DNA of 64,000 nucleotides from NCBI GenBank assembly GCA_963843575.1, contig CAWJKZ010000024.1, positions 181,313-245,312 on the forward strand, in the 5' to 3' direction. The notes below the pieces were generated by a model, which saw only the letters and a program-made list of their open reading frames with translations, did no database searches and was not told where the DNA came from. This document shows, one piece after another, positions 22,237-36,377 of the stretch. Numbering within the stretch: the stretch's first letter is position 1; each line of letters begins with the position of its first letter. A program made the position numbers and the translations under genes. The DNA comes from an uncultured Acidobacteriota bacterium (lineage in GTDB: Bacteria; Acidobacteriota; UBA6911).

Positions 22237-22320
22237 GATTGGCTATCATAAAACAAAAAGCGTACGGCGGAGGATGCGGAAATCTCCGGCCGTTTTCCCT
22301 GACACGTTTTCCCGTTCAAT

Positions 22321-22331
22321 TGTGCTATAAG
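22321..22331 (+). promoter_or_regulatory. Candidate extended -10 promoter (TGcTATAAG) for the + strand operon starting at 22378
   Basis: TGTGCTATAAG sits about 45 nt upstream of the 22378 start, in a 140-bp divergent intergenic region. No good -35 hexamer. Confidence 0.3.
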
Positions 22332-22377: not shown

Positions 22378-23241
22378 ATGCACCGGTTGACGGATCCATT
22401 CTGGGCATTCTGGGGCAGGATCCTGCTCAAGCCCGTGGCGTTGGTCGTGCTGAGCGCCTCGATGCTTTTCGAGGGCTATCACCTCCTCGCCCCGTCCGGG
22501 GACAGCCTCGGCGGCATCCGCCGCGATCTCGCCGAACAGGTCTGCGGCAAGGCCGTCGACGAGCTGCCGAAGATGAACGGCGTCCCGTCCCTCGCGGTTC
22601 TCAACCTCGCCGGCGACGACCAGGGGCTCGTCACCGAAATCCTGCGCGCGCGGCTCGAAGCTTCCGGCGAGTTCCGCCTGATGGAGCCCGGCTTTTTCAG
22701 GAAGCTCCTGCGCGAATTCGGCAAGGAGGAAGCGCCCGTCTCGCGTCTCGCCGACGCGGTCGACATGGCCCGCAAGCTCGGGGTCGACCTGGTCCTCTTC
22801 GGCGAACTCCCGGAATTCAAGGCCTCGGCCGACCGTGCCGCGATCCGGCTCGAGCTGCGGATGGCCGAGCGCGCGACAGGCCAGGCTTTGTTCGCGCGCA
22901 GCTACTCGGAGAGCGTGGGCAGCGGCCCGGGTCGTTTCAGCTGGCGCGCGCGCATGGCGGGGAGCGCCAAGGGGCGCAGGATATTCATCTGGGTCGCGTT
23001 CACCCTGCTGCTCCCACTCCTGACCGTCCCCTTGATCCGCCGCATCATCTCGGTCGAATCGAATCTCGTCAACCTCGTCCTGCTCGTGGCCTACACGGCC
23101 GTCGACCTGGCGCTCGCGTTCTTCCTGACGGGCTTCTGGATTCCCGGGATCTGGACCGCGGTCGTGCTGCTGCTCGCGCTCGCGGCGAGCGCTCTCTACA
23201 ACTACGTGATTGCTTCGTTTATCGAAGAGATGAGTCACTGA
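22378..23241 (+). CDS. Hypothetical membrane protein, first gene of the ESCRT-like cluster
   Basis: Intact 287-aa ORF. N-terminal TM segment and a soluble middle region. The C-terminal third is strongly hydrophobic (IFIWVAFTLLLPLLTVPLI...IPGIWTAVVLLLALAASALY). Confidence 0.5.
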   Translation: MHRLTDPFWAFWGRILLKPVALVVLSASMLFEGYHLLAPSGDSLGGIRRDLAEQVCGKAVDELPKMNGVPSLAVLNLAGDDQGLVTEILRARLEASGEFRLMEPGFFRKLLREFGKEEAPVSRLADAVDMARKLGVDLVLFGELPEFKASADRAAIRLELRMAERATGQALFARSYSESVGSGPGRFSWRARMAGSAKGRRIFIWVAFTLLLPLLTVPLIRRIISVESNLVNLVLLVAYTAVDLALAFFLTGFWIPGIWTAVVLLLALAASALYNYVIASFIEEMSH

Positions 23242-23251
23242 GGTAACCGAT

Positions 23252-23848
23252 ATGGCTCTGTTCAAATCCAAAGAAGAGCGGCGCATCGAAAGGAACATCC
23301 AGATCCGCAAGGCCGTGACCCAGATCCGCCGCCAGATCGCCTCCAACGGCAAACACGAGAGCGATTACATCGCCAAGGCGAAGAGAGCCCGGAAAATGGG
23401 CTGGGACAACCAGTACGAGTTCCTCAAGAAGGCGATCAAGAAGACCGCCACGATCAAGGTCCGGCTCGAGCGGCAGCTGCTGGCGCTGGAATCCGCCGTG
23501 CAGATCAAGGAGCAGGCCGAAGGGCACCACGAGTTCGCGAGCGCGATGAACGCGCTGTCGAAGTCGATCGCCGAGGTGTTCGGCGCCACCGACATGGCCA
23601 AGACCCAGGTCAATTTCGAGAAGGCGATGTCGCAGGCCGAGAGCCTGGAAGAGCGGATGGACACGTTCCTCGAGATGACGTCCGAGTCGATGTTCGACTA
23701 CGAGGGGAGTTCCGAGCGCGAGCTCGTCAGCGACGGCGACATCGACAAGATGCTCGAGGAGGAAGTGCAGCACGAGGAACGCGAAGGGATAGACGAAGAA
23801 ATCGACAAGGACATTTCGGCCATCCAGAAGGAAATCGAGAAAAAATAA
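23252..23848 (+). CDS. ESCRT-III (Snf7/CHMP)-like protein 1
   Basis: Intact 198 aa and all alpha-helical. Basic N-terminal helices (KAKRARKMGWDNQYEFLKKAIKKTATIKVRLERQLLALESAVQ) are followed by an acidic C-terminal tail ending DEEIDKDISAIQKEIEKK, which is MIM1-like. Length and charge polarity match Snf7-family proteins. Followed by MIT-AAA gene. Confidence 0.65.
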   Translation: MALFKSKEERRIERNIQIRKAVTQIRRQIASNGKHESDYIAKAKRARKMGWDNQYEFLKKAIKKTATIKVRLERQLLALESAVQIKEQAEGHHEFASAMNALSKSIAEVFGATDMAKTQVNFEKAMSQAESLEERMDTFLEMTSESMFDYEGSSERELVSDGDIDKMLEEEVQHEEREGIDEEIDKDISAIQKEIEKK

Positions 23849-23850
23849 TG

Positions 23851-23887
23851 TGGAGTGCGCGCCTCGGCGCCTCGACGCCGCACTCCA
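23851..23887. repeat. Short REP-like hairpin (TGGAGTGCGCGCC...GACGCCGCACTCCA) between ESCRT-III-1 and Vps4-like-1
   Basis: Shares the arm motif GGAGTGCG / CGCACTCC with the other copies and sits in the 43-nt intergenic gap. Confidence 0.6.
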
Positions 23888-23891
23888 GAAG

Positions 23892-24998
23892 ATGAATACG
23901 ATGCAGTTCTTCCTTGATCAGTACGAGAAGAACAAGGACCAGGGGCTCGACTATCTCAAGGTCGGGGACTACGAGCAGGCAGGTTACCACCTGCTCCTCG
24001 CGGCGAAGTACCTGCTGACCGCGGCGCAGCGGTCGGAGCCGGGGCTCAAGAAAGTGAGACACGCGAAGGCGTTGAAGCTGCGCGAGCTCGCGCTCTCGGC
24101 GAAGGGTCGGACTCCCCCCAGGAAGGCTGCGGGGGCCAGGGACCAGGACGGCGATCTGACGCCCGAGAGCAAGTGGATTGTCTCCGAGAAGCCGAACGTC
24201 CGGTTCGACCAGGTCGCCGGCCTCGCGGACGTCAAGGAAGCGATCAACCTGCGCGTCATCCTGCCGTTTCGCAATCCCGACGCCGCGAAGCGCTTCAGGA
24301 AGAAGGCGGGGGGCGGCATCCTCCTGTACGGACCGCCGGGCACCGGCAAGACGATGATCGGCAAAGCGGTCGCGACCGAGCTCGACGCGCAGTTCCTCAA
24401 CGTCAAGAGCTCGAACATCATGTCGCCGTGGGTCGGGGTGGCCGAGCAGAACCTCGCGCGGCTGTTCGAGGTGGCGCGCCGGTATCCCATCTCGGTGATT
24501 TTCCTGGATGAGACCGAGGCCCTGGTCGGGAAGCGCGGCAGCCAGTCGACCGTGATGAACCGCGTAGTCCCGGAGTTCCTCTCGCAGGTCGACGGACTCG
24601 ACCCGAAGGTGAACTGCATCCTGCTGATGGGGGCCACGAACCGGCCGTGGGACATGGACGAGGCGGCCCTGCGCACCGGGCGCTTCGGCGAGATGATCTA
24701 CGTGGGTCTCCCCGATGCCGCGGCCCGCGAACAGATACTCCATTTCCACCTGGACGGCATCCCGATGGCGTCCGACATCGACCTCCCTGCCCTGGCGGCG
24801 AGGCTGGACGGCTTCAGCGGAGCGGACATCGCGGGTGTCTGCATCAAAGCGACCGATTTCCCCTTTCAGCGGCAGATCCGCTCGGGGGCCGACACGATTC
24901 TGACCAAGGAGGACCTGGACCGGGCCGCTGCGGAAGTCGTCCCGTCGGTGACCCAGGCCATGCTGGAGCGCTATCGCAAGTTCGCGGAGGCGAGGTAA
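23892..24998 (+). CDS. Vps4-like AAA+ ATPase 1: N-terminal MIT domain plus a meiotic-clade AAA domain plus a Vps4_C-like helix
   Basis: Intact. MIT-like three-helix N-terminus (MQFFLDQYEKNKDQGLDYLKVGDYEQAGYHLLLAAKYLLTAAQ...KVRHAKALKLRELA). SEKPNVRFDQVAGLADVKEAINLRVILPF...GGGILLYGPPGTGKTMIGKAVATE closely parallels eukaryotic Vps4 (PNVKWSDVAGL...ILP...[22 protein letters not shown]). Pore loop SPWVGVAEQ, Walker B VIFLDE, and C-terminal SVTQAMLERYRKFAE. Confidence 0.8.
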   Translation: MNTMQFFLDQYEKNKDQGLDYLKVGDYEQAGYHLLLAAKYLLTAAQRSEPGLKKVRHAKALKLRELALSAKGRTPPRKAAGARDQDGDLTPESKWIVSEKPNVRFDQVAGLADVKEAINLRVILPFRNPDAAKRFRKKAGGGILLYGPPGTGKTMIGKAVATELDAQFLNVKSSNIMSPWVGVAEQNLARLFEVARRYPISVIFLDETEALVGKRGSQSTVMNRVVPEFLSQVDGLDPKVNCILLMGATNRPWDMDEAALRTGRFGEMIYVGLPDAAAREQILHFHLDGIPMASDIDLPALAARLDGFSGADIAGVCIKATDFPFQRQIRSGADTILTKEDLDRAAAEVVPSVTQAMLERYRKFAEAR

Positions 24999-25022
24999 CG
25001 CCGCCCGCTTTGGAGTCGACCG

Positions 25023-25718
25023 ATGAGTGACCCCGTAAGCCACAGCCTCCCTGCCGCGCCGCGCTGGGGCGAACTCTTCCTCGAGCGGTTCGACCTGAAC
25101 GTGCGCGCCTGCGGCGCCGTCGTGCACCCGGCCGACGGGACCGTGCTCAAGGTCAATCCGAAGATGCTGGGGCAAACTTTCCGCCGGGACTTCGGCGAAG
25201 TGGTGCTCTTCTCGCTCTCCGCCGGCCTCATCGCCAGATCCCGCCTGCACCTGGCCGCCATCCGGCTGAACGACGGCGTCCCCGAGCCGGAACTCCTGCG
25301 CCGCGTGGGCGGTCCCGACGGACTCGATTTCGTGGGCGATCATTTTTACTCCGTCGGGTTGTTCGCGCCCGGCGGCTGGCCCGAAGAGTGGAAGGCACAG
25401 GCGGCGCTGCGCGGCAACGCGCTGTTCTACCTGGTCGAGAAGGGGGACGGAACCGGCTGGGGCGTGTTCGGCCCGGAAAACCCTCTCCTGCGGCTGTTCG
25501 ACCCCGAGACGACCATCGAGAAGGCGGCCCGGGCGGCGCAGGCCCTCGCGGGGCACCCACGGCTCGTGATGCCGGGGGACCAGGTCGAAGCCGGCGCGTT
25601 CGCCGCGGAACTGCGCCTGGACGCGGAGGCCCTGGAGAAAGCGCTGGCAGCTTCGCAGGGGCGCTTCCACAAGATGGAGTACAAGGGCAAGACCTACATA
25701 CAGCGGTCAATCCGGTAG
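25023..25718 (+). CDS. Hypothetical protein (231 aa) embedded in the ESCRT-like cluster
   Basis: Intact ORF with an RBS-like sequence upstream. No recognisable domain. Confidence 0.4.
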   Translation: MSDPVSHSLPAAPRWGELFLERFDLNVRACGAVVHPADGTVLKVNPKMLGQTFRRDFGEVVLFSLSAGLIARSRLHLAAIRLNDGVPEPELLRRVGGPDGLDFVGDHFYSVGLFAPGGWPEEWKAQAALRGNALFYLVEKGDGTGWGVFGPENPLLRLFDPETTIEKAARAAQALAGHPRLVMPGDQVEAGAFAAELRLDAEALEKALAASQGRFHKMEYKGKTYIQRSIR

Positions 25719-25726
25719 GAGGAATC

Positions 25727-26338
25727 ATGTCCGTGATGGAGAAACTCAGAGCGCTGTTCCAGAGCGAGAGTCTGCCGGACGAGACGCGCCAGCTTTACAG
25801 CAGGGCGTCCACGCCGCACGAACTCATCAAGGAGCTGGAGGGGTTGCGGGGCCGCAACGAGGTCGACCTGCGCGAGAACGAGCAGGAGCTGATCGGGCTC
25901 GAGAAGGCGGTCCTGCTGGAGGAGGACGCCGTGCGCCGGGGAGGGATGACCCCGACCGAAGAGACGATCGTGCTGCGCCGGATCGAACGGCTGCAAAAGC
26001 AGCGGGAGAACCTCGACCGGCAGGTCTCGATCTACAACGAAAACGTCAACCTGCACCTCAACCTCATCGCCAGAATCCAGGAGATGGAGGCGATGCGCTC
26101 CCGCGGGGTCGCCGAGGACCAGATCGACCGGCTCGTCGAGGATGTCGAGGGGCACGTCGAAGAGTACAAACGGGTGAGCATTGCGGCCGAAGGGGGCTCG
26201 ACCATGGGTTCGGCCATCGACCACTCGGCCGAGCGCCGCCGCCTGGACGAGATCAAGAACCGCATCCTGGCCAGGGACAGGGAACGTCCACGCGCCGCGG
26301 ACGAGGAACCCGTCGAACCCCCCAAAGACCTGGAGTGA
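25727..26338 (+). CDS. ESCRT-III (Snf7/CHMP)-like protein 2
   Basis: RBS TAGGAGG precedes the ATG at 25727. 203 aa, helical. Core ENEQELIGLEKAVLLEEDAVRRGGMTPTEETIVLRRIERLQKQRENLDRQVSIYNENVNLHLNLIARIQEME. The C-terminal RLDEIKNRILARD resembles the Vps2-type MIM1 (D/E-L-x-x-R-L-x-x-L-R-R-D). Confidence 0.65.
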   Translation: MSVMEKLRALFQSESLPDETRQLYSRASTPHELIKELEGLRGRNEVDLRENEQELIGLEKAVLLEEDAVRRGGMTPTEETIVLRRIERLQKQRENLDRQVSIYNENVNLHLNLIARIQEMEAMRSRGVAEDQIDRLVEDVEGHVEEYKRVSIAAEGGSTMGSAIDHSAERRRLDEIKNRILARDRERPRAADEEPVEPPKDLE

Positions 26339-26374
26339 TCCCAGCTATCACGATTCATCAAAGGAGATCGAATC

Positions 26375-26995
26375 ATGAACCTGATCGAAAAGCTGTTCAG
26401 CAAATCGCCCACCGCGGCGGACCTCCGGGTCCAGCTCAAGGAGATCGAAAGGGACCAGAAGAAGAAGCGGCGCGACCTCGACATCGTCGAGCGCAACAAG
26501 CAGCAGAAGGTCAAGGAAGCCGTCGCCGCAAAGAAGAATGGCAAACAGGAGGTGCTCCGGGACATCTTCCGGGAGATGCGGCAGATGGAGATCGAGAACG
26601 GCTATGCAAACGCCGACCTGCGCCGCCTGTCGCTGGCCAAGACCGCGCTGACGTCCTTCCTGCGCAAGATGGAGATGCTCGAGCGGAAGAAGGACCGGAA
26701 GAGCCTGCAGAACCTGATCGTGCGGTTCAAAGACAGCTCGATCCAGAAGGCGATCGACACGGCGGAAGTCGACGACGACACCTTCAACGACATGCTGGAA
26801 GAGATCCTCGGCGAAGAGGAGTTGTCGGTCACGCAGGGGAGGGTGAAAGAAGATACCGGGTTTGCCGACTTCGACCGGGCGATCGGCGAGATGGCGAAGG
26901 CCGAGGAGGCCGGTTCGGACGAAGAGGATCTCAACAAGTTCCAGGAAGAGATCGACAAGGCCGTCCGGGCGGAAAAAGTGCGGGACGAGGCGTAG
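26375..26995 (+). CDS. ESCRT-III (Snf7/CHMP2-like) protein 3
   Basis: 206 aa. N-terminal half LRVQLKEIERDQKKKRRDLDIVERNKQQKVKEAVAAKKNGKQEVLRDIFREMRQME parallels the CHMP2 helix-1/2 pattern (...AAKKGQKD...). Acidic C-terminus DDDTFNDMLEEILGEEEL...EEDLNKFQEEIDKAVRAEK. Confidence 0.7.
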   Translation: MNLIEKLFSKSPTAADLRVQLKEIERDQKKKRRDLDIVERNKQQKVKEAVAAKKNGKQEVLRDIFREMRQMEIENGYANADLRRLSLAKTALTSFLRKMEMLERKKDRKSLQNLIVRFKDSSIQKAIDTAEVDDDTFNDMLEEILGEEELSVTQGRVKEDTGFADFDRAIGEMAKAEEAGSDEEDLNKFQEEIDKAVRAEKVRDEA

Positions 26996-27019
26996 CAGGG
27001 GTTCTGGAGGCCTGATCAC

Positions 27020-28240
27020 ATGGACGTCGACCTGAGCGGGCCGCTGAAAGTGTCGCTGGACAAGACACTGGCCGAGGCGCGGGAGCTCGAAGGGCAGAAC
27101 AAGGGCCAGGAGGCGGCCGTCGCCTACCTGAAGGCGTCGAAGCTGATGAAGAGCTACGCCGACTACGCGCTCACCCGCGACGACCAGGTGCGGAGGCGCC
27201 AGAAGGCGCGGCAGTACCTGGAGTGGGCCGAGGCGCTCAAGGCCGGCAAGCGGCGGGTGGCCGCAGCCGCCGCGCCCGTGCGGGCTGCACCGGTTGCCGG
27301 CGGCGTCAAGGAGGCCGCCGCCGGGGACGAGGAACAGTACTCGCGCGACATCGCGTCGCTGATCCACCGCAGCAAGGTGACGTGGGACAAGATCGGCGGG
27401 CTCGAGGAGACCAAGCGTGAGATCAAGTTCACGTACGGGCTCGCGCTGGCCCGGAAACCGGAAGGGATGAAGCTCGCGGGGTGGCGCCGCATGCTCTTCT
27501 ACGGGCCGCCCGGGACCGGCAAGACGTTGCTGGCGGCGGCTACCAGCAACGGGCTGGGCGCGACCTTCTTCAACGTCAAGGCGAGCAACCTCCTGTCGAA
27601 GTACTTCGGCGAGTCCTCGAAGCTGATCACGGAGCTGTTCGACGCCGCCCGGAGCGAGGCCGACGAAGGCTTCGCCGTCATTTTCATCGACGAGGTCGAG
27701 TCGCTCTGCCTGCCGCGCGGCGACGGCTCGGAGAGCGGCGCCGAGAGGCGCGTCCTGTCGACGATCCTGTCGGAGCTCGACGGGCTGGCGGACAAGGGTG
27801 AGGACCGGTTCGTCCTGACCATCGCGGCGACCAACGCGCCGTGGGACCTCGACGACGCGGTGCTCAGCCGCTTTCAGAAGAGAATTTACATCCCGCTGCC
27901 CGACGCCGAAGCGCGCAAGTCGATACTCGAGATCCTGCTGCTCAAGGCGGGCCACACGCTGGACTACCCGCTCGGGGAGGTCATCGAGCACTCGGAGTGG
28001 TTCAGCGGGCGCGACCTGGAACGGCTGGCGAACCAGGCGGTCAACGTCATGGTCGAGGAACTCAACAGCCAGATTCCGCGCTGCGTCGACGCCGGGCGGG
28101 AGTCGATCGAGGGCTACCAGCTCAAGGTGCGCCCGCTCGGCAAGAGCGATTTCGACGAGGCGTTCCGGCGCATACGGGTGGACGTGGACCGGCTGAAAAA
28201 GCTGGAGACGCGCTTTCGCGAGTTCGCAGAGAGCAATTGA
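27020..28240 (+). CDS. Vps4-like AAA+ ATPase 2 (MIT-like N-terminus plus meiotic-clade AAA)
   Basis: Intact 406 aa. MIT-like helices (AVAYLKASKLMKSYADYALTRDDQVRRRQKARQYLEWAEALK). Walker A FYGPPGTGKTLLAAA, pore loop LSKYFGESSKL, Walker B VIFIDEVESL, and a C-terminal helix LKKLETRFREFAE of Vps4_C type. Confidence 0.75.
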   Translation: MDVDLSGPLKVSLDKTLAEARELEGQNKGQEAAVAYLKASKLMKSYADYALTRDDQVRRRQKARQYLEWAEALKAGKRRVAAAAAPVRAAPVAGGVKEAAAGDEEQYSRDIASLIHRSKVTWDKIGGLEETKREIKFTYGLALARKPEGMKLAGWRRMLFYGPPGTGKTLLAAATSNGLGATFFNVKASNLLSKYFGESSKLITELFDAARSEADEGFAVIFIDEVESLCLPRGDGSESGAERRVLSTILSELDGLADKGEDRFVLTIAATNAPWDLDDAVLSRFQKRIYIPLPDAEARKSILEILLLKAGHTLDYPLGEVIEHSEWFSGRDLERLANQAVNVMVEELNSQIPRCVDAGRESIEGYQLKVRPLGKSDFDEAFRRIRVDVDRLKKLETRFREFAESN

Positions 28241-28258
28241 GGACTTCCGGGGAATCCG

Positions 28259-29230
28259 ATGGCGGTTTGCGGTCAGTGTAAACAGGACGGCGGGGAAAAG
28301 AAGTTCTGCACCAACTGCGGCGCGCCCATGGTTGAGCCGGCCGCGCCCGCTCAGAAAGCGCAGGCGTCCGGGGTGCGGCTTGGGGACATCGGGTTCGTGA
28401 AGGGGAACATCACCGACTCGAGCACGGTCACGACGACCACCACCAACGTCGGGCAGATCAACATCGGGATGCCTGCCGGCACGTCCCCCGCGGCCCCGTG
28501 TTGCCCCATCTGCGGCGAGTACCCGGAGCTGCGCGAGAGCTTCCGCTGCATGGCGTGCGGGCGCGACTACATCTGCAAGAGGCACCGCCACCCCGAGCAA
28601 AGGATCTGCACCGCGTGCGTCCGCCGGCGCGAGATGGTGTGGGTGCCGCCGGGCGGATCGTTCGACGGGTTCTGGATGGACCGTGCGAAGGTGACCTGCG
28701 AGGCCTACCGGCGATTCCTGGTGGCCAATCCCGGCTGGCAGAAAGGGAGCGTCGATGGGAAGCGCCACGACGGCTACTATCTCAGGGATTGGAACGGGAA
28801 CGACTACCCGGCCGGGAAGGGCGGCCAGCCGGTGGTCTACGTCAGCTGGTACGCGGCCCGCGCCTGCGCGGAGTGGTCCGGGAAGCGGCTCCCGACCGAG
28901 GCCGAGTGGGAGTACGGCTGCCGCGCGGGAACGAACACGGCCTACTGGTGGGGGGACGAGTTCGCCCTGGGGCGGGCCGCCGAAGCCAACCCTTGGGGAC
29001 TGCGCGGCATGTCGGGGTGCCTGTGGGAGTGGACGTCATCGCCCTTCAGCGACGACCCCGCGGATGCGGGGCCGCGCAGCTGCCGCGGCGGCTCGAAATG
29101 GGGGGATGCGGCCGAAGCCCGCTCCTCCGCGCGCAGCGGCCGCGCCCCGAGAGGCTGCAGCGTGATGGTCGGTTTCCGGTGCGTCGAGAGCGGAGACTGT
29201 CCAACGACGAAGCCACTCGACCAGATGTGA
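28259..29230 (+). CDS. Zinc-ribbon protein with a C-terminal FGE-sulfatase (SUMF1/EgtB/PvdO-type) domain
   Basis: N-terminal CGQC...CTNCGAP ribbon plus a second Cys cluster. The C-terminus carries FGE-sulfatase hallmarks (VYVSWYAARACAEWSGKRLPTEAEWEYGCRAG...RGGSKW). Confidence 0.65.
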   Translation: MAVCGQCKQDGGEKKFCTNCGAPMVEPAAPAQKAQASGVRLGDIGFVKGNITDSSTVTTTTTNVGQINIGMPAGTSPAAPCCPICGEYPELRESFRCMACGRDYICKRHRHPEQRICTACVRRREMVWVPPGGSFDGFWMDRAKVTCEAYRRFLVANPGWQKGSVDGKRHDGYYLRDWNGNDYPAGKGGQPVVYVSWYAARACAEWSGKRLPTEAEWEYGCRAGTNTAYWWGDEFALGRAAEANPWGLRGMSGCLWEWTSSPFSDDPADAGPRSCRGGSKWGDAAEARSSARSGRAPRGCSVMVGFRCVESGDCPTTKPLDQM

Positions 29231-29233
29231 TTC

Positions 29234-29327
29234 AAGTGGGTCTGGGCTTCAGCCCGGACGTCTTTTGATCTGAGCTATACAGCTAAGCATGCGCTGTATA
29301 GCGACCGACGAACCAGCGTCCCACTTG
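29234..29327. mobile_element. MITE-like element copy: 27-bp arm AAGTGGGTCTGGGCTTCAGCCCGGACG, an internal palindrome GCTATACAGC...GCTGTATAGC, and a degenerate right arm
   Basis: Same arm as the copies at 46132, 53298, 55168 and 58699. Starts 3 nt after the stop of the FGE-domain gene. Confidence 0.65.
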
Positions 29328-29360
29328 AGGACTTTCGCTTGAGGCACTGAGGTTTGCTAG

Positions 29361-30869
29361 ATGATGATGGATGCCGCGGACCAATTGAAGGAGCTGCTTC
29401 TCAAACTCAAGCAGAACCTCCCGCTCACGATCGCGACCACGATCGTAATGAGCATCCTCGTCATATCATGGAAAAAACTCCTTCATTTTGCGAAACGCAG
29501 ACTCGGTTTCGAAGAGCCTCCCAAGGAAGTCCTGAAACCCTCGCTCCCTGAAGGCGATTTTGCCCGTCTGTCGACGCTCGACAAGTTCCGTTCCGGCTTC
29601 TCGGTGCCCTTCGGCTGGCGCGGCGCCGTCGTCGACGCCGGCGTGGTTCAGCGTGAGCTCGGCCCCGGCCGCTACCGCCGGCGCGCCGTCGCGAAGATAA
29701 TCGCCTCCCTGCGGCTCGGCGAAAACGCGCACGTCGTCTTCTGGCGGGACCAGGAGTTCCCCGTAGTGCTCTATCTCCGTGATCTCTTCGCCTCCGACCA
29801 CCAGCCCATGCAGCTCGAGATCCGGAGCACGGCCCGGGTGCGGCCCGATCGTCTGACGCACTCCTCCCCGGAGGAGATCAACCGCGACCCGGCCTGCTGG
29901 GCGGAGGATCTCTCGGCCGGCATCGCGGTTGCCGCCCGCCAGTGGGTGGCCGGTATGGCGGCAGAGGCGCCGTATCACAACGCGGCCAAGCTCTCCGAGT
30001 GGTGCGACGTGGCTGCCGGCTGGATCCGGTCCGCCCTCGAGCGCTCGACTTTCGAACTGGTGCGAGTTACCGGGTTCCGGTTGTTCAGCCCGGTGCTCGA
30101 CAAGGTCTTCGCCGAATACGGCGAGGCGGCGCTGGAGCACGAGGCCGCGCGCCGCGAGGTGGAGCGCAACAAGGTGCGCGGGGCGCTGCGCCAGGCCGTG
30201 CTCGCCGGCCAACTGGAGGAGGTCCGGGACCAGAGCGAGCACGAACAGGCGGTGCGCGCCATCGAGCAGGAAAAAGAGCTCCGCGAGAAAGCCCTGCGGC
30301 AGGAACTGGCGCAGGCCGAACTCACGGAACTGGAAGACAAACTGAGACTCTGGAAGAAGAAGCAGGACCTGTTGCTCCAGACGCTCGACCTGTCGGGGCA
30401 GGACTCCGCCCGGCAGTTTGATGCCCCCGACTCGCCGTTCTCCGCCCACGAGCGCGAACAGATCCGGGCAGTGCTGCAGAGTCAAAGGGCGATGTCGACG
30501 CAACCCGAGGAAGTGCTCCCGCTGCTCGCCCGCAGCACAGAGATCCAGTGGGCCGCGTTCGACCCGCTTGCCCGGATCCGCGGCCCGCACACGCTGCGCG
30601 TCGGCGAGGGGTGGCGGTTCTTCGACGGGGTGAGCCTGTGGAGAATCGTGCTGACCCGCATCGACACGCGTCGTAACGGGTTCTTGTGGCAGCGGGAGAC
30701 GCCGTCGCGCGCGTATTTCGAAGTGCGCGGCACGCCCGACGGCCGGCGCTACGAGCAGGTTGTCGAACTGAACAAACACTTCCGGCTGAGCGCCGGCCCC
30801 CACGAGATGAGTGTCGACTTCATCGGCGGCAGCGCGAGCCGGATTTCACTCCAGGTAGGCCAGGCCTGA
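29361..30869 (+). CDS. Membrane-anchored SPFH/band-7-like protein with a long coiled coil
   Basis: Intact 502 aa. TM helix LPLTIATTIVMSILVIS is followed by an SPFH-like segment (AVVDAGVVQRELGPGRYRR...HVVFWRDQEFPVVLYLRDLFASDHQPMQLEIRSTARV) and a coiled coil of about 120 aa. Confidence 0.45.
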   Translation: MMMDAADQLKELLLKLKQNLPLTIATTIVMSILVISWKKLLHFAKRRLGFEEPPKEVLKPSLPEGDFARLSTLDKFRSGFSVPFGWRGAVVDAGVVQRELGPGRYRRRAVAKIIASLRLGENAHVVFWRDQEFPVVLYLRDLFASDHQPMQLEIRSTARVRPDRLTHSSPEEINRDPACWAEDLSAGIAVAARQWVAGMAAEAPYHNAAKLSEWCDVAAGWIRSALERSTFELVRVTGFRLFSPVLDKVFAEYGEAALEHEAARREVERNKVRGALRQAVLAGQLEEVRDQSEHEQAVRAIEQEKELREKALRQELAQAELTELEDKLRLWKKKQDLLLQTLDLSGQDSARQFDAPDSPFSAHEREQIRAVLQSQRAMSTQPEEVLPLLARSTEIQWAAFDPLARIRGPHTLRVGEGWRFFDGVSLWRIVLTRIDTRRNGFLWQRETPSRAYFEVRGTPDGRRYEQVVELNKHFRLSAGPHEMSVDFIGGSASRISLQVGQA

Positions 30870-30970
30870 CGGATTTTTGAAAATTCGAGATTCTTCGAGT
30901 CTTGGAGCCTTCGAGGTGGGATTGGAATCCCCCTCGACGACCATTTCACCAGACGCATCGGAGGCACGCC

Positions 30971-33031
30971 ATGTTCCAGGTCGAATGCCCTAAATGTCAG
31001 GAGAAAAGCAAGTCCGGTTCGCGTTATTGCGGCAACTGCGGCGAACGCCTGCCGGGGTCGGAGATCAAGTGCGGCAACTGCGGTGCCGTCGTCGCGGGCG
31101 ACAGGAAGTTCTGCGGGAACTGCGGCAAGCCCCTGGCCGAGAGCGAATCCCCGCTGCTGACCGGCAACCGCTGGGCGCGGCGCACCGACGATTTCGCGAC
31201 CAAGGTCGAGATCGACGACGTCGAAGGCTTCTTCAAGAAAGGGTTGATCGTCGAGGCGGGCACCAGGGCCATCTTCTTCGTCAACGGCGCGTACTCCGGC
31301 ATCCTCGATCCCGGCAAATACGACATGGGCGGACTGCTTCAGCGCATCAAGAACGTCTTCAGCTCGAAGACGACCACCGCGGTCCTCGTCGATGCGGGAG
31401 ACGCCGAACTCCAGTTCTCGCTCACCGACCTTCCGACGAAAGATCCTATCCGCCTTGCCGCCGAGTGCAGGATCGTCGTCCAGATGGACAACCCCACCCA
31501 GTTTTTCGAAAACATGATGAAGGGCCGGCAGAACTATCCGCTCTCGCAGCTGAAGGGCTTCCTCGAGGAGGAACTGCGCAACTGCCTGCTCGAGTTCGTC
31601 GGCGCCAGGTCCGTCCAGGAACTGTCGACCAACCTCGCATTCAAGCAGCAGATGGAGCAGGGGATCGCGCAGCACCTCGCCAGGACGTTCGACCGGAAGG
31701 GGCTGTCGTTCATCCAGGCGCGCGTCTTCAACTTCCGGCACCCGCGCATGAACGCGCTGACCAGCAAGATGGAGGAGTACTGGTTGAACGCCGAGGATCT
31801 CAAGGCCCGGCTGGCCGGACAGGACTCCACGGTGGGGCTGGAGCGGCGTCTGCTCGACCAGGAGACCGCCAAGGCGATCATGCAGCTCGAAGTCTACGAA
31901 GACCGGGCGCGGGTGCGCGACCGGATGCGCAAGGCGGTCGCGAGCGATCAGATGAACGAGATCACCAGCGCGGCCGAGATGGAGAAATTCCTCCAGGGGA
32001 TGGACAAGGAAAAGCTCCTGCGCGCCGACGAGATGCGTGACCTCGCCCAGACCTTCGCCGAGAAGGGCGAAGATCACGACGTCGCCCGCCGTCACGTGAT
32101 CCAACGGCTGAGGGTCGAGCAGGAGATGGACCTCGCCCGGGCGGCGCTCGTGGGCAAGATCGGACTGCAGCGCACGGCCACCGATTCCATCAGGGCCGAG
32201 GAGATGGCCCAGCTCGAGCACGAGCTCGTGGCGCAGCGCAAGGAAGTCGAACAGCGGCAGGCGCAGGAATGGGCGCTCGTCAAACAGCAGGTGGAGGCGC
32301 GGCGCCTGCAGACCGAGATGGACCTCGACCTGGACAGGCAGAGGAAGCTCTCCGATATCGAACTCGAGGAGAAAGGGGACCAGGCGGACGTGCGCAGCGC
32401 CCTGGATGCCTTGAGAATCGTCAAAGAGCAGAAGGCCATGCGGAAGGAAGAAGCCGACGCCGACCTGGAGCGCCGGTTGAAAGAGGAGGCGGTGCGGCAC
32501 CAGCAGGAGCTCGAGAGGGTCGACAAGCTCTCGACGCTTTCCACCGAGGCGCTGATCGCGCTCGGGCCCGCGGACCGGGCGCCTATTCTCGCAGAACTGC
32601 AGCGGTCGGAAAAGCTGAAGGGTTATTCGGCGGACCAGATCCTGGCGATGGCGGCCGAGAAAAACCCGGAGGTGGCGAAGGCATTCCAGGAGAAGTACCG
32701 GAACGCTTCGGCCGCAGACGTCGAGAAGGCCTACGAGCGGATGCTGGGGATGAAGGAGAGGAGCGAAACCGACTTCCACGCGTTCGCGGACAAGGCCATG
32801 CAGAGGATGCAGGAGATGTACAACCGCGGCATGGACACGCAGCGCGACACGAGCATGGCGGCGGCCCGGTCGGGCCAGCCCGAGACGACCGTGATCACGC
32901 CCGGCTCCGGAGTCCTCCAGAGCAGCGGCGGGCAGCCCGTCCGCGAGGTGCGGGTGATGGTCTGCCCCGAGTGTCACCAGAAGGTCGCCGAAGGGAACAA
33001 GTTCTGCGACAACTGCGGTCACAAGTTCTGA
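30971..33031 (+). CDS. Zinc-ribbon protein with a flotillin-like SPFH domain, an extended coiled coil, and a C-terminal zinc ribbon
   Basis: N-terminal CPKC...CGNCG, CGNCG and CGNCGKP ribbons. SPFH-like core (GTRAIFFVNGAYSGILDPGKYDMGG...LAAECRIVVQMDNPTQFFENMM). A coiled coil of about 330 aa rich in E/R/K/Q follows, then a C-terminal CPECHQK...CDNCGHKF ribbon. Intact. Confidence 0.6.
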   Translation: MFQVECPKCQEKSKSGSRYCGNCGERLPGSEIKCGNCGAVVAGDRKFCGNCGKPLAESESPLLTGNRWARRTDDFATKVEIDDVEGFFKKGLIVEAGTRAIFFVNGAYSGILDPGKYDMGGLLQRIKNVFSSKTTTAVLVDAGDAELQFSLTDLPTKDPIRLAAECRIVVQMDNPTQFFENMMKGRQNYPLSQLKGFLEEELRNCLLEFVGARSVQELSTNLAFKQQMEQGIAQHLARTFDRKGLSFIQARVFNFRHPRMNALTSKMEEYWLNAEDLKARLAGQDSTVGLERRLLDQETAKAIMQLEVYEDRARVRDRMRKAVASDQMNEITSAAEMEKFLQGMDKEKLLRADEMRDLAQTFAEKGEDHDVARRHVIQRLRVEQEMDLARAALVGKIGLQRTATDSIRAEEMAQLEHELVAQRKEVEQRQAQEWALVKQQVEARRLQTEMDLDLDRQRKLSDIELEEKGDQADVRSALDALRIVKEQKAMRKEEADADLERRLKEEAVRHQQELERVDKLSTLSTEALIALGPADRAPILAELQRSEKLKGYSADQILAMAAEKNPEVAKAFQEKYRNASAADVEKAYERMLGMKERSETDFHAFADKAMQRMQEMYNRGMDTQRDTSMAAARSGQPETTVITPGSGVLQSSGGQPVREVRVMVCPECHQKVAEGNKFCDNCGHKF

Positions 33032-33038
33032 GCGGAAA

Positions 33039-33063
33039 GCGGCGCCGAGGCGCCGCACTCCAT
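33039..33063. repeat. Half-copy of the REP-like element (GCGGCGCCGAGGCGCCGCACTCCA) 3' of the flotillin-like gene
   Basis: Carries the CGCCGCACTCC arm preceded by the GGCGCC-GA-GGCGCC palindrome. Confidence 0.5.
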
Positions 33064-33074
33064 AGGGGGCAGCC

Positions 33075-34439
33075 ATGGCTAGTTGGGTGTGTGGGAAGTG
33101 CAATACCGAGAATCGGGCCGAGGGGAACTTCTGCACGTCGTGCGGCGCGTCGCGTCGCGCTCAGGCGCCCCCCGCCCCGGCCGGCGCAGCGGACCAGGCG
33201 TCGAGCATCCTGGACAAGATCCGCGAGTCGCGGGCAAGCTCGTTCAAACACAGCCGGGCCTCGCTCGACCGTTTCTCGTCGGAGGTGGGGAAGCTCCCGG
33301 AGCTGGAGCTGGGGTTGCCCGACATCGGGCAGCTGCTCAAAACCGGGACGCCCGGCGCGGCGGGTGCTTCGGCAGGTGCGTCGCGCGCTCCTGCGATCGC
33401 CCGGGTCACGACCCGCGACCTGCAGGTGAAACACAATGCCCACCCGCGCCTGAACTACGCGATGGCGCACTGCGGGCTGCCGCTGATCCCGACGCTGGAG
33501 ATCCGCAACAACGCGCGCGAGCCGGCGCAGGACGTATTGGTCAAGGCGTGGGTCGCGACCGACTACGGCGAACCGTGGCAGAAGACCATCCCATCGATTG
33601 CGCCTGGGGAGGCGTACGTCGAGAAGGACATCTTCGTGCCGCTGCAGAAATCCCGGCTGCAGCAGGTCCGGGAGGCGGAACGGGCCAACCTCAGGATCGA
33701 CGTTTTCACCGAGGGCGAGGTGCAGGTGTCGGAGACCTTCCCGCTCGATGTGCTCGCGTACAACGAGTGGTACTACAGCGCGTACTTCCCTCAGACGGTC
33801 GCGAGCTTCATTCAGCCCAATTCGCCGGCCATCGAAAGGATCGTCTCGCTGGTGCGCGACCGCCTGAAGCGCGAGTACCGCGACACCGCGCTGGACGGCT
33901 ATCAGTCCGACGACCCGAAAAAGATCCTGGAACGCCTCGAGGCGTTCTTCCTCGTCCTGCAGAAGGACCTGCAGATCACCTACATCAACCCGCCGCCCAG
34001 CTTCGAAGGGGCCGAAACCCTCCCCGACGGCACCATGACGGTGTCGCAGAAGGTTTTTTTCCCCGAGCAGATCCTGGAGCACCGCCGCGGCACGTGCCTC
34101 GACCTGGCCCTCATGTGCGCCGCGTGCGTCGAACGTATGGGGCTGCACCCATTGTGGTTCATGATCCGCGGGCACGCGTTCTTCGGGACGTGGCTGTACC
34201 AGAAGGCGCTCAAAGAGCCGGTCGTCACCGAACACGCGTTCGTGCAGAAACTGCTGACCGAGGGACTGTGGCTGCCGCTGAACTCGACGACCTTCGCGCT
34301 CTCCCGCCCGATGCAATTCACGGACTGCGTCGCGGAGGCAACTTACTGTCTCAAGGATCCGGCACCGTTCATCTGCGCCGTCGACGTGCAGTCGGCACGG
34401 ATGGGCGGCATCAAACCTATCCCCCCGGTGGTGGGATAG
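33075..34439 (+). CDS. Zinc-ribbon protein with a C-terminal transglutaminase-like cysteine protease domain
   Basis: N-terminal CGKC...CTSCG ribbon. C-terminal transglutaminase-like core segment HRRGTCLDLALMCAACVERMGLHPLWFMIRGHAFFGTW, whose Cys/His are the putative catalytic residues. Intact. Confidence 0.55.
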   Translation: MASWVCGKCNTENRAEGNFCTSCGASRRAQAPPAPAGAADQASSILDKIRESRASSFKHSRASLDRFSSEVGKLPELELGLPDIGQLLKTGTPGAAGASAGASRAPAIARVTTRDLQVKHNAHPRLNYAMAHCGLPLIPTLEIRNNAREPAQDVLVKAWVATDYGEPWQKTIPSIAPGEAYVEKDIFVPLQKSRLQQVREAERANLRIDVFTEGEVQVSETFPLDVLAYNEWYYSAYFPQTVASFIQPNSPAIERIVSLVRDRLKREYRDTALDGYQSDDPKKILERLEAFFLVLQKDLQITYINPPPSFEGAETLPDGTMTVSQKVFFPEQILEHRRGTCLDLALMCAACVERMGLHPLWFMIRGHAFFGTWLYQKALKEPVVTEHAFVQKLLTEGLWLPLNSTTFALSRPMQFTDCVAEATYCLKDPAPFICAVDVQSARMGGIKPIPPVVG

Positions 34440-34476
34440 GCAAGTACCGCAGGCTTTTCGATTGAGGTGAGCTGTC

Positions 34477-36132
34477 ATGACCGAGACGACTCGCTATTGC
34501 CCGAATTGCGGAGAACCGTGCGGCTCCGAAGACCGCTTCTGCATGACCTGCAGGACAGAGTTGCGCGCCACAACAAATCCCCGTCCGGTGACCGTTTCCG
34601 GCACCGGGACTCCCTCCGGCACGGGCCATGCGGCCCGGTCGCCGATGGCCGACCCGCTCGGCGCGGCCCAGACCGAACTGGGGCTGCCGCTGAACACGGT
34701 CCTGCTCAACCGTTACCGCATCTCCAAGATGCTGGGCGCCGGCGGCATGGGTTGCGTCTACATGGCCGAGGATGAAAAACTCGGGATCCCCGTCGCCATC
34801 AAGGTTCTGCGCGACGTGCTCAGGCAGGATCCCGGGTCGGTGAGGCGACTGATCACCGAGGCGAAGGCCTCCATCCTGCTGTCGCACCCGAACATCGTCC
34901 GGCTGCACAATTTCGAGGACGCCGAGACGACGAAGTTCCTCGTCATGGAATTCGTCCAGGGCGAGACGCTGGCCGACAAGATCGCCCGGGAGGGAAAACT
35001 CGCGGAGGACGTCGTCAGGCGCATCGCCGTCGAGGTCTGCAAAGGGCTGGAGCACGCTCATTCCAAGAGGGTGATTCACCGCGACATGAAACCCGGGAAC
35101 ATCCTCCTCGGCAAGGACGGCTCGGTGAAGGTCGCAGATTTCGGCATTGCGCGGCTGTGCCGCGACTCGGTGTCGCGCCTGACGTCGCAGCACGACTCGG
35201 GGACGCTGATCTACATGTCCCCGGAGCAGCTCGACGGCGACAGCGGGGAATCGACCGACCTGTACTCGCTCGGGGCGGTGCTCTACGAGATGTTGTCCGG
35301 GGACCCGCCATTCGTTACGGGGGAAATCACGGCCCAGATCCGTCACAAGGTGCCGAAGGAGATACCCGGGGTCTCGGCGGAGATGAATCGGATCGTCCTG
35401 AAGTGCCTGGAGAAGAAGCCGGAGAACCGGTTCGCCGGGTTGGCCCGGTTGCGCGAGACGTTGGAGGGCAAGGCCACGCAGACCGTCGGGACGCAGCCGG
35501 TCGGGCCGCCACCAGCGCAGCCGCCGGTCACGCCAACGGTGCGGCCCACCGAGCCGGTGGTTGCCCCACCTCCTCCGCCGCAACCACAGCTACCCCGGCC
35601 GAAGAAGTCGCGGTTGACGTTGTCCGTGGTATTGGGGGGCGCCGCGCTCCTCCTGGCCCTGATGGTGTACCTGTCGATCTTCGGAGCGTATCACGGCTCG
35701 GAAATCGGCGGAGGGGGAGGAGGAGGGAGCGGCGACGACGGCGGCTCCGTGCCACCCCCGCCCCGCATCGACATCTCGGGAGACTGGGGTTACACGGTCA
35801 CGTCACCCGACGGCAGGTCTGTCCGCGGCCAGCTGCAGATCGCCGACAAGGGAGGCGAGGTGCGGCTCTATGCCGAGGCCGCGTACTCGATGATGTGGAC
35901 CGACGGGCGCTTCCACCAGTTCATCGAGCGCAGCAACTGGGCCGGCCAGCTTGTCGACCGCAACCTGCAGGCGCAGACCGTTCAGGGGACCGTGCTGATG
36001 GACGGGGTGCCGGTCCCCCCGATCGGGTTGCCCTGGAGTTTGAACCTCTCGGTCTCCCCCGGCGAACGCTACATGCAGGGGACCGTAGGGAACGCGATCG
36101 GCGGGGTCGCCAGCCTGTCCGCGCAGCGGTGA
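34477..36132 (+). CDS. Hanks-type Ser/Thr protein kinase with an N-terminal zinc ribbon, a TM helix and an extracytoplasmic C-terminal domain
   Basis: CPNCGEP...CMTCRTEL ribbon. Kinase subdomains GAGGMGCVY, AIKVL, HRDMKPGNILL, DFGIA and SPEQ. TM helix LTLSVVLGGAALLLALMVYLSIF, then a C-terminal domain of about 140 aa. Intact. Confidence 0.85.
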   Translation: MTETTRYCPNCGEPCGSEDRFCMTCRTELRATTNPRPVTVSGTGTPSGTGHAARSPMADPLGAAQTELGLPLNTVLLNRYRISKMLGAGGMGCVYMAEDEKLGIPVAIKVLRDVLRQDPGSVRRLITEAKASILLSHPNIVRLHNFEDAETTKFLVMEFVQGETLADKIAREGKLAEDVVRRIAVEVCKGLEHAHSKRVIHRDMKPGNILLGKDGSVKVADFGIARLCRDSVSRLTSQHDSGTLIYMSPEQLDGDSGESTDLYSLGAVLYEMLSGDPPFVTGEITAQIRHKVPKEIPGVSAEMNRIVLKCLEKKPENRFAGLARLRETLEGKATQTVGTQPVGPPPAQPPVTPTVRPTEPVVAPPPPPQPQLPRPKKSRLTLSVVLGGAALLLALMVYLSIFGAYHGSEIGGGGGGGSGDDGGSVPPPPRIDISGDWGYTVTSPDGRSVRGQLQIADKGGEVRLYAEAAYSMMWTDGRFHQFIERSNWAGQLVDRNLQAQTVQGTVLMDGVPVPPIGLPWSLNLSVSPGERYMQGTVGNAIGGVASLSAQR

Positions 36133-36194: not shown

Positions 36195-36377
36195 GGCTAG
36201 GTTCGGCACAGGAAGGCAGGCGGCGCCGAGGCGCCGCCGGGGAAAGTGGCGCCGGCCGTGGCCGCGGCCGGCGCCCGAAGCGAGCGGAGGAGAGCGGCGG
36301 CATGTTCGGCAGGGACTGACGCCCGCCAAATCCCTTGCCGGCCGCGCGCCGACGCTCCACTCACCCCATCCCAAAAT

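Follow-up and report, generated by a model that had tools for sequence, protein, structure and literature searches.

A bacterial gene block linking a Snf7-family ESCRT-III protein and Vps4-like AAA ATPases to SPFH, transglutaminase-like and kinase genes

The present work concerns a block of 12 uninterrupted plus-strand genes that fills positions 22378–36132 of a 64,000-nucleotide (nt) stretch of bacterial DNA (hereafter the window; uncultured Acidobacteriota bacterium of the UBA6911 lineage, assembly GCA_963843575.1, contig CAWJKZ010000024.1, positions 181,313–245,312). The block encodes a Snf7-family ESCRT-III protein and two AAA ATPases that are Vps4-like in architecture and context, followed by SPFH, transglutaminase-like and kinase genes, and its genes co-travel across distant genomes. 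On balance, the 12 genes appear to constitute one co-inherited bacterial system in which ESCRT-III/Vps4-type remodelling is joined to a scaffold and signalling module. The interpretation that we favour, by a modest preference, is kinase-regulated membrane remodelling assembled on SPFH scaffolds.

According to the open reading frame (ORF) list of the window, the genes follow each other in the order A, E3a, AAA1, D, E3b, E3c, AAA2, H, I, J, K and L with gaps of 10, 1, 24, 8, 36, 24, 18, 130, 101, 43 and 37 nt, in agreement with the co-directional cluster with short gaps that had been proposed in a preliminary description of this DNA. Ten of the 12 genes pass a GC3 coding filter (the G+C content of the window is about 65%); the two that do not, E3b at 25727 and H at 28259, both have conserved homologues.

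The Snf7-family protein E3a and its small neighbours

E3a (198 amino acids (aa), 23252–23848) is assigned to the Snf7 family by family-profile matches in the PDB and by Pfam Snf7 matches of its relatives. A 54-sequence profile retrieves CHMP2A (7.2e-6) and CHMP3 (1.3e-5) along with CHMP1B, CdvB and Snf7, the alignments being nearly full length, and a profile of five sequences finds CHMP3 at 9.7e-5. The Snf7 model of Pfam (PF03357) is matched by 15 of the 54 family members with a best value of 5e-8; PspA is matched by none of them. The profile is required for this assignment: a single-sequence PDB search with E3a gave nothing useful, and the window protein by itself scores E=0.71 against Snf7. 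The net charge of the N-terminal half is +11 and that of the C-terminal half −18. The family is rare, the E3a HMM (hidden Markov model) matching, at E≤1e-3, 335 cluster representatives out of 1.84 billion.

Two further small helical proteins are encoded by the block. E3c (206 aa, 26375–26995) is weakly ESCRT-III-like according to its hhalign comparison with the E3a family and its charge pattern (+8/−13), and it has no match in the PDB. Its gene lies directly upstream of AAA2 in L001, L002, L085, L095 and L096 (loci of relatives are given by their numbers). E3b (203 aa, 25727–26338) is kept at a conserved position in L001, L002, L085 and L095; the charges of its halves (−4/−8) are without N/C asymmetry. 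The N-terminal Met-x2-Phe is invariant across the E3a, E3b and E3c families, and D137 and the C-terminal E194 are nearly so. Conserved acidic, amphipathic C-terminal segments are seen in the small proteins. Since the hhalign relationship to the E3a family is weak for E3c and absent for E3b, sequence comparison establishes E3a as an ESCRT-III protein, makes E3c a possible one and leaves E3b unproven. Thus, what had been described as ESCRT-like genes holds for E3a as a Snf7-family member, is weak for 26375 and finds no detectable homology for 25727.

E3a-like Snf7-family N-terminal domains also occur fused to ATPases in metagenomic proteins (P0365, P0387-P0389 and P0392; P0372 and P0377). The partners are FtsK/SpoIIIE ATPase domains or RuvB-like AAA domains, one of the latter with a TnsA-like endonuclease match.

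The two AAA ATPases

AAA1 (382 aa, 23850–24998; PF00004 at 3.2e-34, AAA_lid_3) is a classical-clade AAA ATPase with a helical N-terminal region and begins 1 nt after E3a. AAA2 (406 aa, 27020–28240; PF00004 at 8.8e-36) combines an MIT-like with an AAA part in a Vps4/katanin/spastin-like architecture and begins 24 nt after E3c. Each protein has one classical AAA cassette. In the AlphaFold2 model of AAA2, a three-helix bundle (residues 6–74) is followed by a disordered linker, the AAA domain and a C-terminal helix. The Pfam MIT model matches AAA2 weakly (0.13) and its homologues at 9e-4 to 3e-2, all below the cut-off; for AAA1 there is no MIT match in Pfam. No match to PF09336 (Vps4_C), which stands for the Vps4-specific C-terminal oligomerisation region or beta-domain, was obtained for either window ATPase. 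Weak Vps4_C matches are confined to some relatives, and weak Vps4_C and MIT matches occur among the AAA1 orthologues of L096 and L102.

Among NCBIfam models, AAA1 scores about equally with CDC48 (208 bits) and CdvC (203 bits), both under cut-off, and the top match of AAA2 is CdvC with 179 bits, far under the cut-off of 650 bits. For AAA2, Foldseek gives equal E-values for p97-D2, FIGNL1, katanin, spastin and the Vps4 of M. sedula. Because the fold comparison does not tell these families apart, the ATPases are labelled Vps4-like, for their predicted architecture and gene context, and not Vps4. The adjacency of an ATPase gene and an ESCRT-III-like gene recurs in L001, L002, L085, L095, L096 and L102.

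The GTDB genomes were scanned with the AAA2 alignment using Walker-motif patterns. The matches listed are generic AAA loci with at most 42% identity, the best archaeal ATPases among them being 33–39% identical in the AAA part only, and an HMM scan found none with E3a/b/c, I, J or K.

Conservation of the neighbourhood in relatives

The neighbourhood comparison was entered from three sides, namely from AAA2, K and J, and the relatives that carry a name belong to Vicinamibacterales, Acidobacteriota, Chloroflexota and Anaerolineales. From the AAA2 side, L001 (82% identity in AAA2) has the order A-E3a-AAA1-[236 aa]-[S8]-E3b-E3c-AAA2-I-J-K-kinase-kinase/TPR/FGE next to the same Amidohydro_2 gene as in the window. 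In L002/L003 (Vicinamibacterales, 66%) the core is kept, with J, K, an I-like gene and an FHA gene present along with CsgG-like inserts. From the K side, all three metagenome loci with enough upstream sequence (L085, L087, L091) have AAA2, J, K and an I-like gene; E3b and E3c are reached in L085 and L091. From the J side, the three most distant homologues (31–33% identity) are those of L101, L102 and L103. L101, from Anaerolineales, has AAA2, four kinase-FGE fusions, a PQQ gene and an I-like gene; L102 has AAA1 (including Vps4_C), AAA2, E3a (with a Snf7 match), FHA and a fusion of zinc ribbon, kinase and FGE; in L103 an H-like gene and kinase-FGE fusions stand beside the J homologue. L096 of Chloroflexota shows E3c-AAA2-E3a-H, then a PQQ gene, AAA1 and a kinase gene.

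The order E3b-E3c-AAA2-(I)-J-K-kinase/FHA is kept in L001, L002/3, L085, L087 and L091, and the linkage persists to about 31–35% protein identity and into Chloroflexota. Synteny in relatives and domain searches had been set beforehand as tests by which the proposed single functional island could be refuted; the ATPase, K and J searches arrived at the same neighbourhood, which, together with the SPFH and transglutaminase-like assignments given below, supports the island. The FGE domain exemplifies how accessories vary: it occurs as a stand-alone zinc-ribbon protein in the window, L096 and L103 and as a kinase fusion in L001, L099 and L101–L103. We read the gene orders as the mark of a single flexible system, whose accessories can be exchanged around a core, and not of chance adjacency.

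Some genes of the relatives accompany the cluster as well. Members of an HTH_17 family (about 130 or 420 aa), which may be a dedicated regulator, lie in or beside it in four distant loci, namely L096 (6042–7274), L103 (6649–7932), L102 (7658–8047) and L002 (1–73), and no homologue is present in the window. CsgG/FlgO- or LpoB-like proteins are encoded within the cluster in L002 (976–2277, 12301–13338, 20373–21236), L102 (8866–9981) and L103 (9328–9996), in the last two loci directly upstream of J. In L103 (545–2775) an H-like gene for an FGE-sulfatase protein with a double zinc ribbon lies between two bAvd genes, which belong to the accessory genes of diversity-generating retroelements, and a cassette of ~1.4 kb (FGE 3' end, bAvd, 5' end of the next gene) is duplicated at 78–91% identity. 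A reverse transcriptase match and a clear template/variable repeat pair were not found in L103, so the retroelement is not confirmed; no template/variable-type repeat occurs in the window.

The downstream genes H, I, J, K and L

H (28259–29230) encodes a soluble protein of 323 aa in which an N-terminal zinc ribbon and another Cys-rich module precede an FGE-sulfatase domain (C-type-lectin-like, 'FGS'; PF03781 at 4.9e-31, 108.7 bits vs a cut-off of 23.3). Its scores with the EgtB and SenA equivalog models (51 bits) do not reach their cut-offs of 360–420. Two catalytic cysteines are located in FGE in the segment following 'RGGS'. The absence of a cysteine pair from this segment of H suggests that it is a binder and not an enzyme. 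An orthologue of the same architecture is found after AAA2 and E3a in L096.

I (502 aa, 29361–30869) is a membrane-anchored SPFH-like protein with a transmembrane (TM) helix at 19–37, a coiled coil and a conserved C-terminal domain. The hhalign comparison of the I and J families aligns residues 74–308 of I to 86–351 of J, that is the SPFH domain and the coiled coil, with a probability of 98.3% and E=1.7e-14. Pfam gives no match of any kind for the window protein, and two of the four orthologues match Band_7. I adjoins J in L001, L085, L087 and L101, standing directly before it in L085 and L087. J (686 aa, 30971–33031) is built of a double zinc ribbon, an SPFH domain, a long coiled coil and a C-terminal zinc ribbon (Band_7, DZR and Zn_Ribbon_1 in Pfam; PF01145 at 3.2e-14, 53.8 bits vs a cut-off of 23.6); its start is placed at 30971 because a 100% identical database protein has 686 aa. 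J has no flotillin-domain match in Pfam and no hydrophobic segment, and a sequence search of the PDB with its profile retrieves no flotillin, so 'flotillin-like' expresses an architectural resemblance (SPFH and long coiled coil). I and J are SPFH paralogues, the former predicted to be membrane-anchored and the latter to be soluble.

K (454 aa, 33075–34439) comprises a RanBP2-type zinc ribbon, a helix/linker, an Ig-like beta-sandwich and a transglutaminase-like core. The core has a papain-like/transglutaminase fold with conserved Cys-His-Asp, and K thus has the fold of a transglutaminase-like thiol protease. Apart from a weak RanBP zinc ribbon no Pfam match was obtained, hence no match to the sequence model PF01841, and a single-sequence PDB search yielded nothing useful, so that a profile was required. 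The core is matched by the NCBIfam model NF058533 'anti-phage protein ProA' (1e-74, 251.8 bits) at model positions 1–313 of 1903; the cut-off of 1500 is not reached, and the match reflects a shared domain and not membership. The K domain occurs elsewhere fused to DUF4011 helicase-type proteins and AAA ATPases. A literature search on 'ProA' retrieved proline-biosynthesis papers only. In L097 (9300–13331; also in L098) a 764-aa fusion of an AAA domain with a K-type beta-sandwich and transglutaminase-like core is followed by an FGE-sulfatase gene and adjoined by a relaxase gene, which is a compact mobile version of three cluster parts.

L (551 aa, 34477–36132) carries a zinc ribbon, a Hanks Ser/Thr kinase domain (PF00069 at 1.4e-53, 182.5 bits), a TM helix (384–402) and an extracytoplasmic domain. 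With the motifs GxGxxG (GAGGMG at 87), VAIK (106), HRD (201), DFG (221) and SPE (248) all in place, it has the sequence expected of a transmembrane Hanks kinase that is catalytically competent. Kinases with a zinc ribbon are also encoded in L001, L002, L084, L085, L099, L101, L102 and L103.

The domains that had been assigned by eye were thus largely recovered. Pfam confirms FGE-sulfatase, Band_7 and Pkinase; the TM-anchored SPFH-like nature of the protein at 29361 is borne out by its TM helix, the hhalign match to J and Band_7 in two of the four orthologues. For the protein at 33075 the transglutaminase-like fold and Cys-His-Asp agree with the assignment and the PF01841 sequence match is lacking.

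An FHA protein encoded outside the block (15716–16903, plus strand; PF00498 at 8.8e-5) had been regarded as a possible partner of the kinase. It is 28% identical over ~300 aa to the product of the FHA gene located after K in L002/L091, and an FHA gene sits after the zinc-ribbon kinase in L102. By sequence it is orthologous to these FHA genes, which lie inside the cluster.

Zinc ribbons

A census of CxxC-x(5-20)-CxxC in the six frames of the 64 kb gave eight motifs, seven of which fall within 28268–34551. These seven are in frame and at protein termini in H (two), J (two N-terminal and one C-terminal), K (one) and L (one), as expected from the ribbons noticed earlier on four of the five downstream genes (28259, 30971, 33075, 34477). 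The three N-terminal ribbons once ascribed to J are an over-count: four knuckles make two ribbons (DZR), to which one C-terminal ribbon is added. The ribbon consensus is C-x2-C-x9-10-[KRN][FY]C-x2-C. The ribbons of H and J are 76% identical in DNA over 45 nt, all 12 ribbon cysteines of J are invariant in 22 homologues, and ribbons are borne by at least six proteins of the complete system and are conserved in orthologues. Such a pattern is what would be expected of matching adaptor modules, as has been argued for the effector-associated domains (EADs) of conflict systems (PMC7159879).

Gene A and the remnant of an S8 protease

The first cluster gene, A (22378–23241), encodes a membrane protein of 287 aa, for which the TM scan gives one helix at the N-terminal end and about three in the C-terminal part. 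It has no match in Pfam, NCBIfam or PADLOC. Its counterpart in L001 (58% identity) is likewise the first gene after the divergent Amidohydro_2 gene, and its C-terminal TM part resembles a 190-aa protein encoded after AAA1 in L102.

Between AAA1 and E3b the relatives have two extra genes, one for a 236-aa zinc-ribbon protein and one for a Peptidase_S8 protein of ~900 aa with a zinc ribbon. In the window this place is taken by D (25023–25718), a remnant C-terminal domain that is 50% identical to residues 678–905 of the L001 Peptidase_S8 protein. ORF D has its own ATG and the catalytic part of ~675 residues is gone (24998–25727); neither the S8 catalytic domain nor a homologue of the 236-aa gene is found anywhere in the 64-kb window. 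The window copy is a reduced variant of the cluster, since the catalytic part of the S8 protease is missing from it.

Intergenic elements and chromosomal setting

A REP-like palindrome, which at the same time resembles a terminator hairpin, occupies 29228–29275 in the gap between H and I and reads GTCTGGGCTTCAGCCCGGAC followed by a T-rich tail. The element (family D1; AAGTGGGTCCGGGCTTCAGCCCGGAC...) has at least six copies in the window. The five others (46126–46173, 53292–53339, 53348–53395, 55161–55208 and 58693–58740) are also intergenic, and related sequences are found at 46212–46313 and 55247–55349. A second perfect inverted repeat of 10 bp, GCTATACAGC ... GCTGTATAGC, lies in the same gap just upstream of I (29266–29303) and could be an operator or a further hairpin. 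Terminator counts in the window are not above those of shuffles. The candidate promoter suggested at about 22325 is visible by eye as a TGnTATAAG-like extended −10 element (about 22320–22331), and a sigma-70 scan upstream of 22378 returned no plus-strand promoter, so the suggestion holds for the motif and not for the scan.

The block is bounded on the left by a divergent Amidohydro_2 gene (21082–22236, minus strand) and on the right by a convergent gene of an AcrB-type RND efflux pump (36361–39672, minus strand). The plus-strand ORF 20986–22251 was considered as a cluster member and rejected, as it is the antisense of the real Amidohydro_2 gene. The RND gene is broken over three reading frames: Pfam model positions 1–323 are found in the frame of 39672, 341–627 and more in 36864–38642, and 952–1019 in 36378–36659. 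Either this gene is a pseudogene or its sequence contains indels from the assembly, and because of its frameshifts small features of the assembly, such as the S8 loss, need a quality check before they are given a biological reading. Further out downstream a HlyD-type fusion protein and glycosyltransferases are encoded. A type II secretion or type IV pilus-like set (T2SSE, T2SSF, PilM/PilN, GspD N0) lies at 4557–13631, before the FHA gene. The secretion and RND genes indicate a diderm host, and the region is a bacterial, diderm-type chromosome stretch; no mobile-element genes were seen near the block in the window. Between 16900 and 21000 the codon-position G+C points to minus-strand genes without Pfam match (for example 17926–20370 with 814 aa, and 19883–20950), with a frame change near 18900–19500.

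Proposed mechanism

In the mechanism proposed here, I and J would assemble on the cytoplasmic membrane into hetero-oligomers that make up an SPFH platform or cage, comparable to HflK/C and the flotillins. A signal would be sensed by the ectodomain of the L kinase and/or by the FGS domain and relayed via Ser/Thr phosphorylation, to be read by the FHA proteins in relatives and perhaps by the 15716 protein here. E3a, with E3c and E3b, would be recruited to the SPFH platform and polymerise there. Both ATPases would then bind the acidic C-terminal helices via their MIT-like bundles and turn the polymer over, whereby the marked membrane patch would be bent, repaired, sealed or pinched off. The N-terminal ribbons of H, J, K and L may serve as adaptor modules that gather the soluble parts at one assembly, and the same role is proposed for the ribbons that the 236-aa protein and the S8 protease bear in relatives. 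A component or a cargo might be processed by K and, where it is present, by the S8 enzyme. Archaeal ESCRT loci in which an SPFH-coiled-coil-zinc-ribbon protein is accompanied by kinases and FHA provide a precedent, and a bacterial PspA-SPFH link is cited in the same paper (PMC10936438).

Several observations weigh against this interpretation. The hhalign match of E3c to the E3a family has a probability of 63% and E=7e-5 with 43 columns in register, which is weak, and that of E3b has a probability of 2%, i.e. no ESCRT-III relationship is detectable. Vps4 is not separable from katanin, spastin and p97-D2 by fold or score. L095 has a minimal E3b-E3c-AAA2-kinase-like-E3a set without SPFH or K genes; L099 and L103 have the downstream module with no ESCRT genes within the 10 kb examined; in L100 a K paralogue stands alone. 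The closest relatives have no separate H gene, their FGE domain being kinase-fused. Finally, terminator-like hairpins are present in the H-I (130-nt) and I-J (101-nt) gaps, so more than one transcript is possible.

Alternative explanations

It is possible, if distinctly less probable than the regulated remodelling favoured above, that the block is a conflict (anti-phage or abortive-infection) system and not a housekeeping one. Sensing of an invader would then fall to the FGS domains and the kinases, effector or activator functions to the proteases K and S8 and to the ATPases, and the ESCRT-III/SPFH part would seal or excise the attacked membrane or execute membrane suicide. This would agree with the correspondence of the K core to the N-terminal domain of 'anti-phage protein ProA' and its DUF4011 and AAA fusions elsewhere, with the K-AAA fusion and FGE-sulfatase gene beside a relaxase in L097, with the position of L096 among resolvase and transposase genes, and with the role of FGS domains as invader-binding modules in conflict systems (PMC7159879). 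Rapid turnover of accessories among close relatives (S8 loss here, CsgG-like inserts in L002, kinase-FGE fusions) points the same way. The H-like DZR-FGE gene between two bAvd genes in L103 may be added, but this locus is without reverse transcriptase or a clear template/variable repeat, and no mobile genes are near the window block. An AAA gene near an S8 gene recalls IetAS (ATPases vs IetA 1e-31 to 1e-33, S8 of L001 vs IetS 8e-9); however, PADLOC recognised no system, and the IetA and PD-T4-6 matches reflect generic AAA and kinase similarity and are weaker than those to CDC48/CdvC. Besides, the block encodes no nuclease, pore-former or NADase and stands between ordinary chromosomal genes, and the Amidohydro_2 neighbour is kept in the relative with 82% identical AAA2. 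The chromosomal setting and the neighbour shared with L001 argue for a role in repair or housekeeping.

Archaeal-type ESCRT sorting, in which the SPFH platform would collect cargo that is phosphorylated or ribbon-tagged, for release in membrane vesicles, is unlikely. Such budding is the function suggested for three euryarchaeal systems, 'Main', 'Halo_FHA' and 'Meth_adaptin', and the parts parallel those listed for archaea (ESCRT-III, Vps4, SPFH-coiled-coil-zinc-ribbon, kinases, FHA, Ig-like, PQQ beta-propeller; PMC10936438), the PQQ genes being found in L096 and L101 and the Ig-like sandwich in K. Nevertheless, proteins of the winged-helix (ESCRT-II-like), CdvA-like and adaptin-appendage kinds were not found, no archaeal homologue among the matches listed is close (the best ATPases reach 33–39% in the AAA part only), and the host is diderm, so that budding at the inner membrane would end in the periplasm. 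The defence, repair and sorting readings differ in trigger and purpose more than in the machine itself.

That two unrelated operons, 22378–29230 (ESCRT/ATPase) and 29361–36132 (SPFH-protease-kinase), merely adjoin is improbable: the hairpins and the 101–130-nt gaps at the junctions would suit such a division, as would L095 with the first module only and L099 and L103 with the second only within reach, but searches begun independently from three sides show the two together in at least seven loci, despite rearrangements and at identities as low as ~31%, the zinc-ribbon/FGE gene H of the 'first' module has the same tag as the 'second', and FGE-kinase fusions exist in relatives.

Comparison with known systems

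The ESCRT systems described in archaea outside Asgard (Makarova et al. 2024, PMC10936438) resemble the present block in having ESCRT-III gene(s) beside a MIT-AAA ATPase, which here is MIT-like, and in their SPFH-coiled-coil-zinc-ribbon protein, Ser/Thr kinases, FHA, Ig-like and PQQ parts, with a ribbon on an accessory protein. In contrast to them, the hosts here are bacteria, Acidobacteriota-like and also of Chloroflexota, there are two ATPase paralogues, the winged-helix, CdvA-like and adaptin-appendage proteins were not found, and transglutaminase-like and S8 proteases, FGE/FGS domains and CsgG/LpoB-like proteins are added. With the eukaryotic ESCRT-III/Vps4 machinery the block shares the nearly full-length match of E3a to CHMP2A/CHMP3, the basic N-half, acidic C-half and C-terminal amphipathic helix, as well as an ATPase whose one AAA cassette is preceded by a modelled bundle of three N-terminal helices. 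The similarity is marginal (profile E about 1e-5), though, there is no ESCRT-0/I/II and no ubiquitin link, and the beta-domain (Vps4_C) is undetected in the window proteins.

Among bacterial systems, PspA/Vipp1 in company with SPFH proteins (PspA-YdjI of B. subtilis, as cited in PMC10936438; PMC11237479) is similar in the linkage of an ESCRT-III-superfamily protein to a Band-7/flotillin-like one and in a presumed role at stressed membranes. It differs in that E3a matches Snf7 and not PspA_IM30, a Vps4-like ATPase is present, and PspB/C/F, LiaI and Toastrack are not. HflK/C and flotillin cages likewise have two adjoining SPFH paralogues with long coiled coils, one of them membrane-anchored; J, in contrast, is soluble and ribbon-capped at both ends, no FtsH-type client is encoded, and the flotillin C-terminal domain is not matched.

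The FGS conflict systems (Kaur et al. 2020, PMC7159879) also unite an NTPase core with peptidases (including transglutaminase-like ones), kinases, FHA and FGS binders and have a small shared N-terminal domain as presumed homotypic adaptor. Their core is vWA-MoxR/STAND/GTPase, whereas here it is Snf7 and classical AAA; the tag here is a generic zinc ribbon and not a described EAD, and Snf7/Vps4 are unmentioned there. The likeness to IetAS concerns the relatives, in which a classical AAA gene is close to an S8 gene and both match the PADLOC IetA/IetS models. The window, however, lacks the S8 catalytic domain and has ten further genes in the block, the IetA scores (~110 bits) are below those for CDC48/CdvC, and the S8 protein of the relatives fits generic subtilase (8.5e-25) better than IetS (8e-9). 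With ProA (NF058533) and DUF4011 proteins K has in common the N-terminal domain of ~320 aa made of beta-sandwich and transglutaminase-like core; unlike ProA, it consists of this domain alone behind a zinc ribbon, without the helicase part.

Significance

In current reviews Snf7-type ESCRT-III together with a Vps4 ATPase counts as machinery of archaea and eukaryotes, and ESCRT components have been stated to be not identifiable in bacteria (PMC10936438). A Vps4-like ATPase appears absent from bacteria according to a 2025 review (PMC7619361), and the missing bacterial ATPase is listed as an open question (PMC8281802). A survey of PSP (phage shock protein) systems reported sporadic transfers of Vps4-like genes to bacteria, with displaced snf7, and occasional Snf7 or PspA with AAA+ (PMC11237479). 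Literature phrase searches for bacterial Snf7 or Vps4, which covered few subscription journals, found no description of the present system.

As a tentative and bolder proposal, some bacteria (Acidobacteriota-like and Chloroflexota lineages) might own a complete Snf7/Vps4-type ESCRT wired to SPFH cages, phospho-signalling, proteases and lectin-like receptors, which would work as regulated membrane excision or repair and possibly in immunity; in at least one locus the lectin-like receptors may be diversified by a retroelement. The block, with its bacterial Snf7 and MIT-like AAA proteins, would provide a bacterial setting for testing ESCRT-type scission, as well as a test of the age of the ESCRT-SPFH and ESCRT-kinase/FHA links and of the recruitment of such machinery to membrane defence. 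The shared zinc-ribbon tag offers a concrete, testable recruitment hypothesis. If a bacterial Snf7/Vps4 system is indeed encoded here, ATP-driven ESCRT-III scission would not be an archaeal/eukaryotic invention.

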